This document shows, piece after piece, positions 475 through 13,344 of a stretch of DNA of 24,122 bases. Source of the stretch: a phage; assembly GCA_012086945.1 (NCBI GenBank), contig GCA_012086945.1_3922.1. One strand, 5' to 3'. Both the position numbers and the translations under genes were made by a program. The notes under the pieces were generated by a model. That model ran no database searches, was not told where the DNA came from, and worked only from the letters and a program-made list of their open reading frames with translations. Position 1 is the first letter of the stretch. Each line of letters begins with the position of its first letter.

Positions 475-674
475 TGCATATCCTTAATCTTACCTAATAA
501 CCTTACCCCACAGTTATTACACTCGTATATGTCTAACTTTGTGTTATCAGGTTTGTGAAAACAGTTTGACCCACAACGACACCGGAATAGTTTACCATCA
601 ACACGAAGAATAAACGTCTCAAGCTCACCCTCTTCTGTAAGAACTGCGTTCTTCAATTTATCTCCTACAGTCAT
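471..674 (-). CDS. small Cys4 zinc-ribbon protein (67 aa)
   Basis: CRCGSNCFHK ... YECNNCGV gives a C-x-C ... C-x2-C arrangement; paralogous to the partial ORF at 1..146. Confidence 0.5.
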   Translation of the reverse strand: MTVGDKLKNAVLTEEGELETFILRVDGKLFRCRCGSNCFHKPDNTKLDIYECNNCGVRLLGKIKDMQ

Positions 675-877
675 TTTCTTTTACCACCAATCTCTACGTC
701 GATAACTTGAACATCACCAGCAACATCAAACTTATGAATGATACTTTCCACAGTGTAAGTCCAACCATCGATTCTAACCAACTCACCTTCCCGTGGGACG
801 ATTGGGTTACGTTGAGCTACCGTTGTAGTGGAGTGAACAACATCATAACAGTAGATATAGTTTACTAGGACTTCCAT
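671..877 (-). CDS. hypothetical protein (about 68 aa; track ORF 671..976 shortened to an internal ATG)
   Basis: ATG at 877 is preceded by GAGGT (TTGAGTGAGGTTTTCACG-ATG) and begins just after the stop of the 888..1145 gene; the longer track ORF would overlap that gene by about 90 nt. Confidence 0.4.
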   Translation of the reverse strand: MEVLVNYIYCYDVVHSTTTVAQRNPIVPREGELVRIDGWTYTVESIIHKFDVAGDVQVIDVEIGGKRK

Positions 878-887
878 CGTGAAAACC

Positions 888-1145
888 TCACTCAATAACC
901 GTAGTATGTGATTGACCATTTTTGCCATAGCTATAAGATGTTGTTGTTTGAGAGTTTGGACATCTGACAACAACAATATCTCTGCTTACAGTATCACCAT
1001 ATAACTCATAGACTATGCAATCTTGCATCTCTGGTGGGAGGCTGTAAGAAGCATTTTTATCTTCATAAGAGGGGTTGCAGCCAGATAGAAAAATTACTCC
1101 AAGTGCAACCATTGCTTTCACACAACTCTTAACCTTATTGTTCAC
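888..1145 (-). CDS. putative phage lipoprotein (85 aa), GTG start
   Basis: N-terminus MNNKVKSCVKAMVALGVIFLSG-C has a basic n-region, hydrophobic core and lipobox L-S-G-C (signal peptidase II type). Confidence 0.5.
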   Translation of the reverse strand: MNNKVKSCVKAMVALGVIFLSGCNPSYEDKNASYSLPPEMQDCIVYELYGDTVSRDIVVVRCPNSQTTTSYSYGKNGQSHTTVIE

Positions 1146-1281
1146 GATAGTCTACCTCTCTGTATGTTTTTAAATAGTGAGTGATGAGTTCTGGTAATTC
1201 ACTACGTTTAACGTTTGAACGAAGAAGCGTCCAGTCAAAACCTTTACCAACCCTTCCCCAGAGACTGTACATTTTCTTCAT
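1135..1281 (-). CDS. possible small ORF (about 48 aa, MKKMYSLWGRVGKGFDWTLLRSNVKRSELPELITHYLKTYREVDYREQ)
   Basis: Fills the gap between neighbours; its ATG overlaps the stop of the 1278..1511 gene as ATGA. Below the ORF-track length cut-off; hand translated. Confidence 0.25.
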   Translation of the reverse strand: MKKMYSLWGRVGKGFDWTLLRSNVKRSELPELITHYLKTYREVDYREQ

Positions 1282-1763: not shown

Positions 1764-4463
1764 TTAGTGCACTTCAAGCCAGCTTTTACCAACCTTACCA
1801 GTACCTGTTACAAGTGTTTCTTTCTTAAGACCTAAATTCTTAGAAGCTTGTCCATAATACCAGTCAGTAACTGCTTTCACTTCTGCCGTCATACTTTCTG
1901 GACATTCCCAGCTTGTTTCATCGTGATATGCGCAGAGCAAACGAGCACCAATAGCTGGTTTACGACCATTTAACTTCATCAAACCTTCGTCAATCATACG
2001 ACGACAAGCAAGGTTAATTGCCTCATTTTGAATCTGAGCCTCTGAACCCATCAAAAGATAGTTCAACAGTTTGTGTGGAGATTTACACCACAACCAAGCT
2101 CCAGCAACCTTTACAAATCCCCCTTTAGAGATTGCAGCGGTCTTACCAAAAACCTCTTCAAGTGCCTTTTTAGTCGCTTTGTAGTCAGCTTCCAAGTCAT
2201 CTAGCAACTTCTTAATTTTAGGCAAACGAATAAAGTAAGTCTGTTTAGTCAGTGCACCTTCCTGAGTAGTTGCAGCTTTAATTGTCTTAGCAAACTTCTC
2301 ATCACCTGCACCGAACAGCAGTGCATAGATACCATTCTTAGCTTTTTTACGACCCTTACTAATCTCATGGAGAAGATTCTCATCCTGAGTGGCTCGACAA
2401 GTCAAGATATCCTGCTCATCATTCAAGCTAAAGTAAATACTGTTCAGTGTGTGTGCATCAGTCCCTGAATAGACAACGTACAGGTCATTCTCAGAGTCAT
2501 AGCGGAGGTACTTATCAATCTCTGGGTTGAGGTACTCATCAAAGTGTTTGCAGTAATAGCGTCCATCTTCTTGACGAATAAACTCAATCTCTTCTTTACC
2601 TTGCGTTACCGCTTTGGTGAAGTCTTTGTCACCCATAAAGTTACAAAGAAGAACTAGCTGGGCTGAGTTCATGTCTACAGAGACAACGTTAGTACCTTCT
2701 TCACAAATCCATACTGCCCTCATTGGTTCCCCATAGACAGCAGCACCAGACGGTACGTTTACAATACCATATTGTGTCATACGTCCAGTTGAAGTACCAA
2801 ATACCATTGCACCAGCACTAAGGCGACCATCTGGACGAATCTGGTTTAGCCAACCTTTTTCATCATCCTTTGAGTTCTCAATGGTTCTGCGTCGGTGCAT
2901 CAAAGTATAGTATTTAGCAATCTTCTGTCCAAGCTCACCTTCAATCGTATCATAAGAAGATTCAGTAAGTTTTGGTGAAGTACGGATTAAGCAAGGTTCA
3001 AGCAAATCCGTGTACTTCTTCACAGACCAGTTATGTTCGATGTACTGGACACCTTCGTGTTCAACATAACTCAACCCACACCGTTCAACCATCTCCTGCC
3101 ACTTAGGATGCTTTGTAATCATCTTTTTGTTGTCTTTGAAACGACAAACTTTGACAGGGCGACCGTCTGAATCTTTCTTGTAGTTCCAGTCATCTGGAAT
3201 CCAACCAACTGATTTCAAGTAGTCTTTAACAACTGCTACCTGAGTCATACGAGAAACTTCAAACTCAATTGGTGTATATGGTGCATCAATCAATCCTGTG
3301 TAGCGACTTGACTCAAGCTCAAAGTGGTTAACAACATGACTGTTATAGTACTTCACAGTTTTAACTGTTTTTACTGGCTTCCAGTCTTTGCATTTCTTAC
3401 CAATCTTTGCATTCAACTCATTGCAAATTGCACGAGCATCCTTCATTGCTACAAAACCCTCCTTGTACTCTTCACCAGTTACAGAGTTGGTTGGTGTATA
3501 GCAATTTCTCTTTTCAATGTTAAAAATCTTTGTAGTTGGCTTACCAAATGGCTTGATTTCATATGTCTGCATCTCACCGTTACGTACCTGCTGACGATAC
3601 TTCGTCTTAGGGTACTTGGTAATTCTCTTCAGTCCATCTGCGTGACCAAATGCTTCAACATACTCATTCCAAGCTTTTGCAAACTCTTCTCCAGTGACTT
3701 TACCTTTGGTCTTAATAGTTGGAGGAAGATGTGGTTCAACTTCTGAAGCAAGCTCATTAGTCAACTTGTCAAGTTCCTTTACATGGAACTCCATAAGCTC
3801 TTTATCAGCTTTCCAACCATTGATAGCTTGTTGACTCATCCAGAAAGATGTTTCTTTAGCTCGCATATAGGTTTCATAAGTGTCTATGCCACACTTCTTT
3901 AGCTTGAGATACTCATTATCCAGTGCGCGTTTAGTTTTGGCGTTAATACGGATATCTTCCACAACACGAGTGAAGATTTCTGCATTCCACACACCCCAAT
4001 GTTCAATCTCTGGTTTACGGACACCAACACGAGCACCCCATGCAGCCAAGCCATGAGCACCTTTATAGCCTTTTGGAGTTGGTCTATCCATCCACTGAAC
4101 ACGAGACTGGATAAGAGAATCCTGAAAGAAATTACTCCACGGCTTACACTTTGGATTATCAAAGTTCCATAAATCAGGTGCAATGTGATTGAAAACCCAC
4201 CAGTCATAACCCAGACCATTATGGATGCAAAGTCGTTTTGCCTTTAACGCAAACTCAACACCTTCACGTAAACCACCCTTAATGTACTTAGTGTACTTGT
4301 GACCGAGGATAGGCTCATCTGTAAAGACCCATACAGGTGGCTCTTCATCGTCAGATTTATAATCTGCGAAAGCCATTACGTGAACTTTAGTGAACTCAAG
4401 GAGTAAACCATCAGTTTCTGTATCACCAACTAAATGTAAGTTTTTAAAATCTACGTTTTCCAT
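1764..4463 (-). CDS. DNA polymerase, family A (T7 gp5-like) with N-terminal 3'-5' exonuclease domain
   Basis: Exo I motif VGDTETDG; motif A VVSVDMNSAQLVLL; motif B RKKAKNGIYALLFGAGDEKFA; motif C AYHDE; recalled similarity to T7 gp5 (e.g. YTPIEFEV vs YTPVEHVV). Start set at ATG 4463 (MENVDF...), preceded by AGAGGGAG; the track start at 4493 lacks an SD. Confidence 0.9.
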   Translation of the reverse strand: MENVDFKNLHLVGDTETDGLLLEFTKVHVMAFADYKSDDEEPPVWVFTDEPILGHKYTKYIKGGLREGVEFALKAKRLCIHNGLGYDWWVFNHIAPDLWNFDNPKCKPWSNFFQDSLIQSRVQWMDRPTPKGYKGAHGLAAWGARVGVRKPEIEHWGVWNAEIFTRVVEDIRINAKTKRALDNEYLKLKKCGIDTYETYMRAKETSFWMSQQAINGWKADKELMEFHVKELDKLTNELASEVEPHLPPTIKTKGKVTGEEFAKAWNEYVEAFGHADGLKRITKYPKTKYRQQVRNGEMQTYEIKPFGKPTTKIFNIEKRNCYTPTNSVTGEEYKEGFVAMKDARAICNELNAKIGKKCKDWKPVKTVKTVKYYNSHVVNHFELESSRYTGLIDAPYTPIEFEVSRMTQVAVVKDYLKSVGWIPDDWNYKKDSDGRPVKVCRFKDNKKMITKHPKWQEMVERCGLSYVEHEGVQYIEHNWSVKKYTDLLEPCLIRTSPKLTESSYDTIEGELGQKIAKYYTLMHRRRTIENSKDDEKGWLNQIRPDGRLSAGAMVFGTSTGRMTQYGIVNVPSGAAVYGEPMRAVWICEEGTNVVSVDMNSAQLVLLCNFMGDKDFTKAVTQGKEEIEFIRQEDGRYYCKHFDEYLNPEIDKYLRYDSENDLYVVYSGTDAHTLNSIYFSLNDEQDILTCRATQDENLLHEISKGRKKAKNGIYALLFGAGDEKFAKTIKAATTQEGALTKQTYFIRLPKIKKLLDDLEADYKATKKALEEVFGKTAAISKGGFVKVAGAWLWCKSPHKLLNYLLMGSEAQIQNEAINLACRRMIDEGLMKLNGRKPAIGARLLCAYHDETSWECPESMTAEVKAVTDWYYGQASKNLGLKKETLVTGTGKVGKSWLEVH

Positions 4464-4493
4464 TTTTACTCCCTCTAAAATCATTAACCTCAT

Positions 4494-5143: not shown

Positions 5144-5944
5144 ATGAATATCGATGTAGAAAAGATGCTTGAAGAAAAAGGTATTGACGAAGCATTTTTA
5201 ATCAATGCCGTAGAAAGCATGGCTATGATTCTTCGTGGTAACAACTATACAGAACAGTTTATGCCTGCAAGCTACAATCTGCCTAAAGACAAGTCTGATA
5301 ACGATGCTTTTGCAGAACAGGTTAACATGATGCTTTGCGACAAAACACTTGCTCTGGCATCTATTGCGGTTGGTGTTGATGCTCTTGCAGAGTTCATTTT
5401 TTATGAGATGCAGAGAAATGACTATATCAGGATGTCAGACGAAGATAAGGAGCTGTTGCTGACTAAGGACACTGATTTCATTATTGATACGCTTATCTCA
5501 TCAACAAGTGCTGTTATGGCTGTTCTTGAGAAGCGTATGGAAGAGAAACTTTCACGATATGAAAAACTTGATTGGGGCGTAGAAGAATTAAGCCCACGAA
5601 TCAAAGAAATTATCCAGCAAACTAAAGAGTCTTTGGAAGAAGCTATTGAAAATGACTCTGTAGCTGATATAGAACCTCTTCAGGTGAAAGTTGCACTGAT
5701 GATTCCAGCTATCTCTACGATGATGAATATCGTTGCACTAATACAACTTTCACAGATGATGGGTGTGAGTATTGAGTTCATTGAAGAGATGACTGGTGGC
5801 GTCAGTATGCAAGCAATCAATGATGTTTTGGTGAACATTGGTGCTTCCATCATTGAAGAGAAACTACGCATTAACTTCGGTGATGATTTTGTGAAGCAAA
5901 TCTCAGCTATGGCTGAAAAAGAGTCTGCTGAGCAACTGCACTAA
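5144..5944 (+). CDS. hypothetical strongly acidic protein (266 aa)
   Basis: Start 2 nt after the upstream stop; hand count gives roughly 50 Asp+Glu against about 23 Lys+Arg; followed by a terminator. Confidence 0.55.
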   Translation: MNIDVEKMLEEKGIDEAFLINAVESMAMILRGNNYTEQFMPASYNLPKDKSDNDAFAEQVNMMLCDKTLALASIAVGVDALAEFIFYEMQRNDYIRMSDEDKELLLTKDTDFIIDTLISSTSAVMAVLEKRMEEKLSRYEKLDWGVEELSPRIKEIIQQTKESLEEAIENDSVADIEPLQVKVALMIPAISTMMNIVALIQLSQMMGVSIEFIEEMTGGVSMQAINDVLVNIGASIIEEKLRINFGDDFVKQISAMAEKESAEQLH

Positions 5945-12364: not shown

Positions 12365-12613
12365 ATGTTTAATAAAAGCAAAGCTGTGAGTCATGTAGCA
12401 AAAGTTGACAGTAAGATTGAAGAACTTGAGCGCATTCTTGCAAATGCCAGAGAGTCAATAATTAAAGAGGTTGAAGCTGTTGAATCTCAAATGCAGCACC
12501 TAATGCTTAAACGTCAAGAGCTACGTGAGCATCTGGAATATATTGAAACACGAGAGCTAAAGGTTAACAGATATTTTAAGGAGTCCAAATGTTTAACTCA
12601 AGAGAATCAGTAA
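12365..12613 (+). CDS. small hypothetical protein, probable coiled coil (track 12350..12613 shortened to ATG 12365)
   Basis: GAGAGAG 6 nt upstream of ATG 12365; the track start at 12350 is TTG. Confidence 0.4.
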   Translation: MFNKSKAVSHVAKVDSKIEELERILANARESIIKEVEAVESQMQHLMLKRQELREHLEYIETRELKVNRYFKESKCLTQENQ

Positions 12614-13344
12614 AAAACTGGAATCTTCGTTGTGGAAACACTCAAAAGCAACCTTACAGTGATGAGTATTGGGAGTCTTTGAAATCTCAATCTCTATGTA
12701 TGCTTGAAGAAGCAAAAGAGCTTGTAAAAGCAATTGAAGAGAAAGACCCCATTGAGACACTGGATGCTCAGGCAGATTTGCAATATGTTCTTGACGGTCT
12801 GATTTATCTGTCACAACATGACCATAACGGTGCTATGAAAGCTGTTTGCCATAATAATGACCTGAAGTACACAGACGACTATGAAGAAGCTTTAAAACGT
12901 CTTGCAGATATTGAGAAGCGTACTGGTCAAGAGTGTATCATCAGAATGTCAGTAGTTGATGGTAAAGAATGGTATGCAATTGTTCGTGCAGCCGATGGGA
13001 AGATTATGAAGCAATCTAATCTCCCTAAAGTTCAGCTTGGTGAATACATTGTAGAACTTGAAAGCCAAGAACTTTTTGTGGTAGTATCTGACACATGCGT
13101 TATCTGCAAAGGTATTGTATGTAGCTTAAAGGATTTGGGTGTAGATGGTTTTGTAGAAGTTAATCCAATTACCTCTAAAGCAGATAAAGATTTCTGTAAA
13201 GAGAATGGACTATGGATTGCAGATATTGTCTACTATGATGGTGAGCAGTTCCATGTAACCTCATACCCGAAACTGAATTATGATGCTAATAACCTGAAGT
13301 GCTGGTTAAAAGGGGTTGGTTATAATGGATTCACAGAACATTAA
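12589..13344 (+). CDS. hypothetical protein (251 aa); N-terminal region weakly MazG-like
   Basis: Strong SD AAGGAG; LEEAKELVKAIEEKD...DAQADLQYVLDGLIYL loosely resembles the E-x2-EE / D-x-L helix pair of MazG-type pyrophosphohydrolases. Confidence 0.4.
   Translation: MFNSRESVKNWNLRCGNTQKQPYSDEYWESLKSQSLCMLEEAKELVKAIEEKDPIETLDAQADLQYVLDGLIYLSQHDHNGAMKAVCHNNDLKYTDDYEEALKRLADIEKRTGQECIIRMSVVDGKEWYAIVRAADGKIMKQSNLPKVQLGEYIVELESQELFVVVSDTCVICKGIVCSLKDLGVDGFVEVNPITSKADKDFCKENGLWIADIVYYDGEQFHVTSYPKLNYDANNLKCWLKGVGYNGFTEH

Follow-up and report, generated by a model that had tools for sequence, protein, structure and literature searches.

The stretch of DNA that was analysed here, referred to as the window (24,122 nucleotides), carries on its minus strand at positions 888..1145 a small lipoprotein gene of the DUF4884/phrog_902 family. 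The reading frame starts with a GTG codon at position 1145, ends with the stop codon at 888-890 and encodes a product of 85 aa, which consists of MNNKVKSCVKAMVALGVIFLSGC followed by NPSYEDKNASYSLPPEMQDCIVYELYGDTVSRDIVVVRCPNSQTTTSYSYGKNGQSHTTVIE. A Shine-Dalgarno-like GAGAGG is present on the same strand at 1155..1160, 9 nt upstream of the GTG and within the 3' end of the preceding 48-aa gene. Residues 1-23 (1077..1145, minus strand) form a signal peptide that ends with the lipobox L-S-G-C, the codon of Cys23 being located at 1077-1079, and residues 24-85 (891..1076, minus strand) form the predicted mature periplasmic domain. An alternative in-frame GTG at 1119..1121 on the minus strand would yield a product of 77 aa (888..1121) with the N-terminus MKAMVALGVIFLSGC; in an alignment, this codon falls roughly at the ATG with which the 78-aa orthologs of REP5, Moogle and Michonne begin. 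The preliminary description of the locus had placed a phage-encoded lipoprotein with an L-S-G-C lipobox at 888-1145. Both the coordinates and the lipobox are correct, and the phage origin is borne out by a DNA identity of 94-96% between the first 6 kb of the window and many Escherichia, Salmonella and Shigella phages of the genus Felixounavirus. By this sequence identity, the source phage is a Felix O1-like Felixounavirus. In Felix O1 itself the ortholog is ORF213 (Felix01p170), with the product given as 'unknown', and in Moogle it is gp40. Every annotated record lists the orthologs as hypothetical, and some records, among them KhF1, leave the gene unannotated. The gene is genuine, and its sequence entered the databases with the original Felix O1 record.

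The lipoprotein gene is part of a string of genes headed by the DNA polymerase gene (1764..4493, minus strand), which is followed by three small genes, the lipoprotein gene, more small genes and finally the ligase gene past the left end of the window. In annotated relatives a terminator follows the ligase gene. Within this polymerase-to-ligase string, start and stop codons overlap or stand close to each other. The upstream 48-aa gene (1135..1281, minus strand, phrog_2381) shares 11 nt with the start of 888..1145 and encodes a soluble protein lacking a membrane segment, and the downstream 68-aa gene (671..877, minus strand, phrog_4427) starts 10 nt past the stop codon of the lipoprotein gene and encodes a soluble protein that is not an i-spanin; the listed 101-aa ORF at 671..976 is an over-extension of this 68-aa gene. 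All six neighbour products within the window (84, 67, 68, 48, 72 and 69 aa) are soluble, no hydrophobic segment being found in them, and all fall in PHROGs of unknown function. In other clades, homologs of the lipoprotein gene are likewise part of small-gene arrays that adjoin genes of replication or nucleotide metabolism. An all-against-all BLASTP comparison of the neighbours of ten family members yielded nothing in common beyond two closely related Vequintavirinae. As no neighbour is common to the clades, the DUF4884 protein probably needs no phage-encoded partner.

The N-terminus of the product shows the typical organization of a lipoprotein signal. A positively charged n-region (K4, K6, K10) is followed by a hydrophobic core of 9-10 residues and by the lipobox L20-S21-G22-C23, and the mature protein continues with NPS after the cysteine, so that the residue at position +2 is Asn. 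Initiation at either GTG (1145 or 1121) yields a charged n-region, a hydrophobic core and the L-S-G-C lipobox. A PROSITE-type lipobox rule ([LVI][ASTVI][GAS]C, with the cysteine at position 15-35, a charged n-region and a hydrophobic h-region) was run on the six frames of the window, in which 558 start candidates reach 40 aa or more, and the two starts of the ORF 888..1145 were the only ones that passed it. Judged by the same rule, the lipobox cysteine is retained in 93 of 95 relatives, and its column is invariant in an alignment of 150 sequences. Moreover, 30 of the 150 relatives gave weak matches to LPAM_1 in a hmmscan against Pfam-A. It is thus well supported by signal peptide, lipobox and their conservation across a very large family that the product is a predicted lipid-anchored envelope protein, as the preliminary description had proposed. 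Its view of the mature part as short is likewise appropriate (63 aa), and calling it Ser/Thr-rich is moderately true but mildly overstated, with 14 of 63 residues (22%) being serine or threonine.

The family to which the gene belongs is catalogued and unstudied, and 888..1145 is an ordinary member of it. The product matches the profile of phrog_902, a PHROG of unknown function, over residues 2-83 (E=4.9e-16). In precomputed domain tables PF16225:DUF4884 is given for all close and distant relatives without a mark for a weak or faint match. A local hmmscan against Pfam-A, run with the protein and 150 relatives, did not return DUF4884 for any of them and found weak lipid-attachment-site matches and nothing else meaningful; the DUF4884 label therefore derives from the precomputed tables alone, since the local copy of Pfam-A did not reproduce it. 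In NCBIfam the single match was a sub-threshold one to GDCCVxC, and the product matched none of the PADLOC-related families. An exhaustive profile search identified 1280 clusters of DUF4884/phrog_902 proteins at 50% identity with E<=1e-3 and 763 with E<=1e-10; among the best 150 of the 1280 clusters, members are 71-154 aa long, mostly 75-130 aa. A literature search returned no functional study of the DUF4884 family and no mention of a role.

By tblastn, homologs were found in 545-600 records of phages that infect Vibrio, Escherichia, Salmonella, Shigella, Acinetobacter, Aeromonas, Pectobacterium, Klebsiella, Erwinia, Cronobacter and Pseudomonas. They occur in Ounavirinae, in Vequintavirinae-like phages (phiTE, CR9, F4M1E, POP15), in jumbo coliphages of Asteriusvirus, in jumbo Erwinia and Yersinia phages (Eneladusvirus), in T4-like Aeromonas phages, in Acinetobacter Saclayvirus and in a large set of 114-kb Vibrio phages. 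A 'DUF4884 domain-containing protein' is also encoded by a 50-kb coliphage (PMC12210894). Outside of phage genomes the family is sparse. The gene is absent at the DNA level from 5,426 complete E. coli genomes; plasmids gave two matches only, both partial and both in Acinetobacter plasmid records of about 113-115 kb; and one chromosomal copy, in Paraburkholderia, adjoins phage-type recombination genes encoding an exonuclease and RdgC, for which reason it is probably located in a prophage. Furthermore, a scan of 185,579 species genomes with a degenerate DNA pattern for VVRCPNSQT, which covers the strict motif only, returned seven matches and no family member, the seven being RCPNCQT zinc-ribbon-like sequences or a Cys-rich repeat protein. 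The DUF4884/phrog_902 family is mostly confined to phage genomes.

Besides the lipobox cysteine, Cys43 and Cys62 are invariant in the 150-sequence alignment, and P37, D42, V59, P63, S65 and K75 are conserved in at least 90% of the sequences. The resulting family signature reads Y-x-L-P ... D-C-K-I-Y ... V-V-R-C-P-N-S-x-T ... G-K and is complete in the product of 888..1145, in which it comprises Y34-x-L-P37, D42-C43-x-x-Y46, V59-V-R-C-P-N-S65-x-T67 and G74-K75. Within the subfamily, substitutions affect the signal peptide and the stretch of residues 44-56, which lies between the conserved cysteines, and the segment VVVRCPNSQTTTSY does not change at all. Comparison with nine Ounavirinae orthologs resulted in dN/dS values of 0.10-0.47, showing that the reading frame is under purifying selection, which is somewhat more relaxed than that on the polymerase and some small neighbours (dN/dS 0.01-0.2). 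It might be argued from the GTG start, from the 11-nt overlap with the upstream gene and from the lack of annotation in records such as KhF1 that 888..1145 is a spurious ORF or a non-functional remnant. In view of the purifying selection, of the hundreds of phages that have the gene, of the roughly 1280 protein clusters and the invariant residues, and of the Shine-Dalgarno sequence, the chance of this is negligible, and a spurious ORF was rejected.

Structure prediction for the mature domain by AF2 with 150 aligned sequences resulted in a model of five beta strands with a mean pLDDT of 71.7 and a pTM of 0.50, a confidence that is only moderate. Local confidence is about 80 in the first 40 residues and poor in the C-terminal hairpin (pLDDT 50-59); with the signal peptide included the pLDDT was 61.8. 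In the model, C43 is positioned directly before strand 2 and C62 directly after strand 3. In this prediction the two cysteines flank one beta hairpin, and they probably form a disulfide; if strands 2 and 3 form a hairpin, this topology would have the C43-C62 disulfide staple its open end. Residues 44-56, the part that varies among the Felix O1-like phages, lie at the tip of this hairpin. A search of BFVD matched family members alone, as an example a protein of Yersinia phage fHe-Yen9-03 for which the same fold is predicted (TM 0.88), and also a 'lipoprotein' of Aeromonas phage Aeh1. Fold searches of the PDB with the model returned no match, and a search of the PDB sequences with the family profile returned signal-peptide matches only (BamD, FlgP, Llp).

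The residue following the lipidated cysteine varies within the family. In Enterobacterales, the Lol rule states that Asp at +2 leads to retention in the inner membrane and that most other residues lead to transport to the outer membrane. In the Felix O1 clade this residue is Asn (C-N-P-S), and Lol transport to the outer membrane is therefore predicted for the product of 888..1145. Among the 93 family members that pass the lipobox rule, 24 have Asp at this position, including those of the E. coli jumbo phage CRJP21 (C-D-A), Klebsiella phage KP2025, Pectobacterium phage phiTE, Enterobacter phage F4M1E, Erwinia and Yersinia jumbo phages and Aeromonas phage Ah1. If the Lol rule applies to them, homologs in one host species may sit in different membranes. 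In that case, the variation between Asn and Asp would speak for a target accessible from either side of the periplasm more than for one particular outer-membrane protein. The variation constrains the models, and any model with a single target must account for it.

Among phage lipoproteins with such signals, the preliminary description had named superinfection-exclusion and receptor-masking factors, for example T5 Llp, and spanin components. Neither a spanin function nor receptor masking of the Llp type is favored by the data. As an o-spanin or lysis component, the product would cooperate with a partner in the inner membrane and, at lysis, fuse the outer membrane or disrupt it. With lambda Rz1 and the Moogle o-spanin gp121 it has in common the small size, the lipobox signal and a +2 residue compatible with sorting to the outer membrane, and three of the 150 relatives gave a weak LysC/Rz1-like Pfam match (E about 0.09) restricted to the signal peptide. 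In contrast to these o-spanins, its gene is not accompanied by an embedded, overlapping or adjacent i-spanin gene. Inspection of the adjacent genes for an i-spanin or lysis partner, which had been proposed as a check, showed that none of them encodes a membrane protein. Its position in the replication string points to expression together with replication genes and not with lysis genes. Moreover, the mature part is predicted to fold into a beta structure of five strands and is not rich in proline (4 Pro in 63 residues), and the product has no spanin match in PHROG, Pfam or NCBIfam. The genome of Moogle contains both an i-spanin and an o-spanin, its lysis genes being scattered (PMC4319497). The overlapping pair, gp122/gp121, adjoins rIIB at a distance of about 56 kb from the DUF4884 homolog gp40, and the Moogle-type o-spanin is conserved in 307 phage records, including Felixounavirus LF82P3 and UAB_69, which also carry the DUF4884 gene. 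As Felix O1-like phages thus have a dedicated overlapping i-/o-spanin pair elsewhere, an o-spanin function of 888..1145 was rejected and is highly improbable. Receptor masking of the T5 Llp/Cor type would mean that the lipoprotein binds the phage's own outer-membrane receptor from the periplasm, blocking adsorption and sparing progeny from being lost to debris. In favor of it, Llp of T5 and Cor of T1, phi80 and N15 are also small phage-encoded lipoproteins; Llp is an early protein of a virulent phage and works on the periplasmic face of the envelope, and 888..1145 is apparently made with replication genes; Asn at +2 predicts sorting to the outer membrane; and the variable hairpin of residues 44-56 could be a specificity loop. 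However, the match between T5 Llp (8a60_B) and the family profile covers the signal peptide only (E=8.2), and no fold match was found in the PDB, so that a homolog of Llp or Cor was rejected. The genes llp and cor adjoin receptor-binding or tail genes and their products are specific for FhuA, whereas 888..1145 is located between DNA polymerase and ligase and has no receptor-binding protein gene next to it; in Moogle, about 8 kb separate gp40 from the tail fibre gene, which belongs to another module. In addition, receptors differ among the phages in which the family is found (those of Vibrio, Acinetobacter, Aeromonas, Erwinia and E. coli), and many members have Asp at +2, predicting retention in the inner membrane. 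The adsorption site of Felix O1 is the LPS outer core in the outer leaflet, which a lipoprotein facing the periplasm cannot reach or cover. Receptor masking by the product is unlikely, since the family spans hosts and receptors and the sorting residue differs among its members.

By analogy with Imm and Sp of T4, Llp of T5 and Ltp of Streptococcus phage TP-J34, we put first the possibility that the product of 888..1145 protects or remodels the envelope of the infected cell, for example by a block to superinfection after adsorption. We give this tentative reading a probability of roughly 0.35. Superinfection exclusion in this broader, post-adsorption sense is possible for the product. The likeness to T4 Spackle (gp61.3), Imm and Ltp is an analogy of function and nothing more. 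All three are envelope proteins of small size, produced prior to lysis or from a prophage, and they keep the DNA of a superinfecting phage from entering once the phage has adsorbed; PDB profile and fold searches showed no sequence or fold relationship between them and the product of 888..1145. Ltp, too, belongs to the lipoproteins, whereas Spackle is soluble and helical and Imm is integral to the membrane. In the literature search, no exclusion phenotype was found for the DUF4884 family. Ranked close second, and not separable from the first on present data, is that the lipoprotein takes over or inhibits a host envelope function by blocking or redirecting a conserved periplasmic component. Candidate targets include peptidoglycan hydrolases or their activators, periplasmic proteases or nucleases, sensors of envelope stress and trans-envelope machines, and the possible effect is that the envelope is kept intact and productive during replication or that the timing of lysis is tuned. 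A conserved host target would agree with the strong conservation of the core motif among phages whose hosts are distant Proteobacteria, no phage partner gene is present, the gene is found among small genes of the host-takeover type, and a periplasmic target that can be reached from either membrane would tolerate the Asn/Asp variation at +2. Against inhibition of a host function speaks that the product shows no similarity to lipoprotein lysozyme inhibitors, to other inhibitor folds or to anything in the PDB, and that no candidate target is singled out. Finally, the lipoprotein could counter an envelope-associated host defence or a sensor of abortive infection, as might be suggested by the small accessory-type genes around it, by selection somewhat more relaxed than on some neighbours and by the variable loop. 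We consider this improbable, given that PADLOC-related families gave no match and that the family is conserved unusually broadly for an anti-defence gene; moreover, we know of no such periplasmic target.

For the preferred reading, protection or remodelling of the envelope, the following sequence of events can be proposed. Transcription and translational coupling within the polymerase-to-ligase string would result in production of the lipoprotein together with the replication genes and long before lysis, as judged from the gene arrangement alone. The precursor would be exported and processed by the Lgt/LspA/Lnt pathway, i.e., Cys23 would be modified with diacylglyceryl, signal peptidase II would cleave in front of it and the new N-terminus would be acylated. 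The Lol system would then carry the lipoprotein with its Asn at +2 to the inner leaflet of the outer membrane, where the 62 residues following Cys23 would fold into a five-stranded, disulfide-stapled beta domain in the periplasm. As no conserved phage-encoded partner was found, the lipoprotein probably acts alone in the periplasm, and its target may be a component conserved across the Proteobacteria or a conserved part of the machinery of incoming phages. A candidate mechanism is a block to superinfecting phages after adsorption, similar to that of T4 Sp and Imm or of Ltp, receptor-specific masking being less likely. In a bolder and rather doubtful extension, DUF4884 proteins would constitute a pan-proteobacterial phage 'envelope lock', in which the disulfide-stapled beta domain, anchored in either membrane, blocks genome entry of many unrelated phages. 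Such a lock might bind a periplasmic structure that is conserved universally, or else the tip or ejection machinery, likewise conserved, of the incoming tails.

The function of the protein, if found, would annotate a gene of hundreds of sequenced therapeutic and biocontrol phages, including Felix O1-like, rV5-like, jumbo, T4-like, Vibrio and Acinetobacter phages, and in addition of about 1280 metagenome protein clusters. If the protein is an exclusion or envelope-remodelling factor, it would be relevant to the design of phage cocktails, because co-infecting phages could block each other, and it might point to a conserved weak spot of the Gram-negative envelope. The 'envelope lock', if true, would represent post-adsorption exclusion of a new class, very widespread and distinct from Llp, Cor, Imm, Sp and Ltp. 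The breadth of the family makes DUF4884 a reasonable candidate for functional work, even if nothing in the present description will surprise a specialist. A point against the preferred reading is that exclusion benefits a virulent phage, which kills its host within an hour, less than it benefits a prophage; T4 and T5, though virulent, do encode exclusion factors.

In the Felix O1 clade, the residue directly following the lipid-modified cysteine is an asparagine, and this holds for the protein encoded in the window, in which the codon of Cys23 at 1077-1079 is followed by that of the asparagine. Aspartate at this +2 position is the canonical signal for retention in the inner membrane. It is found in the homologs of an E. 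coli jumbo phage and of Klebsiella, Pectobacterium and Aeromonas phages (homologous loci compared: L030:2459-2704, L031:362-592, L029:2947-3213 and L028:3959-4285) and, across the DUF4884 family, in 24/93 members. Since family members differ in carrying asparagine or aspartate at +2, their sequences suggest that different members may be located in different membranes.

The DUF4884 label depends on the source used. The precomputed tables give PF16225 (DUF4884) for every relative, whereas a local hmmscan against Pfam-A returned a DUF4884 match for 0/150 members, even at E<=1. Either this Pfam-A copy may lack the DUF4884 model, or the model may have been altered.

On a 193-kb metagenomic phage contig, the gene that immediately follows the DUF4884 gene codes for another lipoprotein, divergent in sequence (locus L012:6294-6620; the arrangement at L013 is identical). 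Its own motifs, L-V-G-G-C, Y-x-V-P, G-C, V-V-Q-C, N-Q-T-T and G-K, are laid out as in the DUF4884 protein, and it looks like a tandem paralog of the adjoining gene; in BLASTP it showed no link to the remaining neighbor proteins tested. Some longer family members (P0030, P0041) end in a conserved tail, ...LKKLTPE(E/D)RKALG(L/I), within their last 25-40 residues. Periplasmic Spy/CpxP-like proteins have LTxxQ-type motifs that this tail resembles; it is absent from the protein encoded in the window. In Salmonella phage GE_vB_B3 (MG969406, a 109-kb record marked UNVERIFIED; L003:3001-3252) the ortholog is interrupted mid-gene by frameshifts or stop codons while both ends are conserved, probably reflecting a sequencing error or a pseudogene.

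The single chromosomal bacterial copy examined, on a chromosome contig of Paraburkholderia sp. EG287A (L009:2990-7917), adjoins a phage-type exonuclease, RdgC-like recombination genes and a Band_7 protein. This copy, again located in an early or recombination region, probably lies within a prophage or prophage remnant.

The gene boundary downstream of the window lipoprotein gene has to be corrected. A listed 101-aa ORF with a TTG start (671-976, minus strand) shares sequence with the 3' end of the lipoprotein gene but is read in a different frame. Its match to phrog_4427 is confined to residues 34-101 and extends over the full length of the profile, so the real downstream gene is 671..877 on the minus strand, with its start 10 nt past the stop codon of the lipoprotein gene. 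In the old Felix O1 record, the long form and the short one are both present.

Elsewhere in the window, the 266-aa protein encoded at 5144-5944 (plus strand) is labeled 'minor tail protein' in relatives and by phrog_4251. Its gene has the promoter region of the DNA polymerase gene on one side and the genes for dNMP kinase and primase/helicase on the other, an odd location for a tail gene, and the name may therefore have been passed on from one annotation to the next. At 12589-13344 (plus strand), flanked by homing-endonuclease-sized ORFs and ribonucleotide reductase genes, the window encodes a MazG-like nucleotide pyrophosphatase of 251 aa (phrog_2144, E=5e-102).
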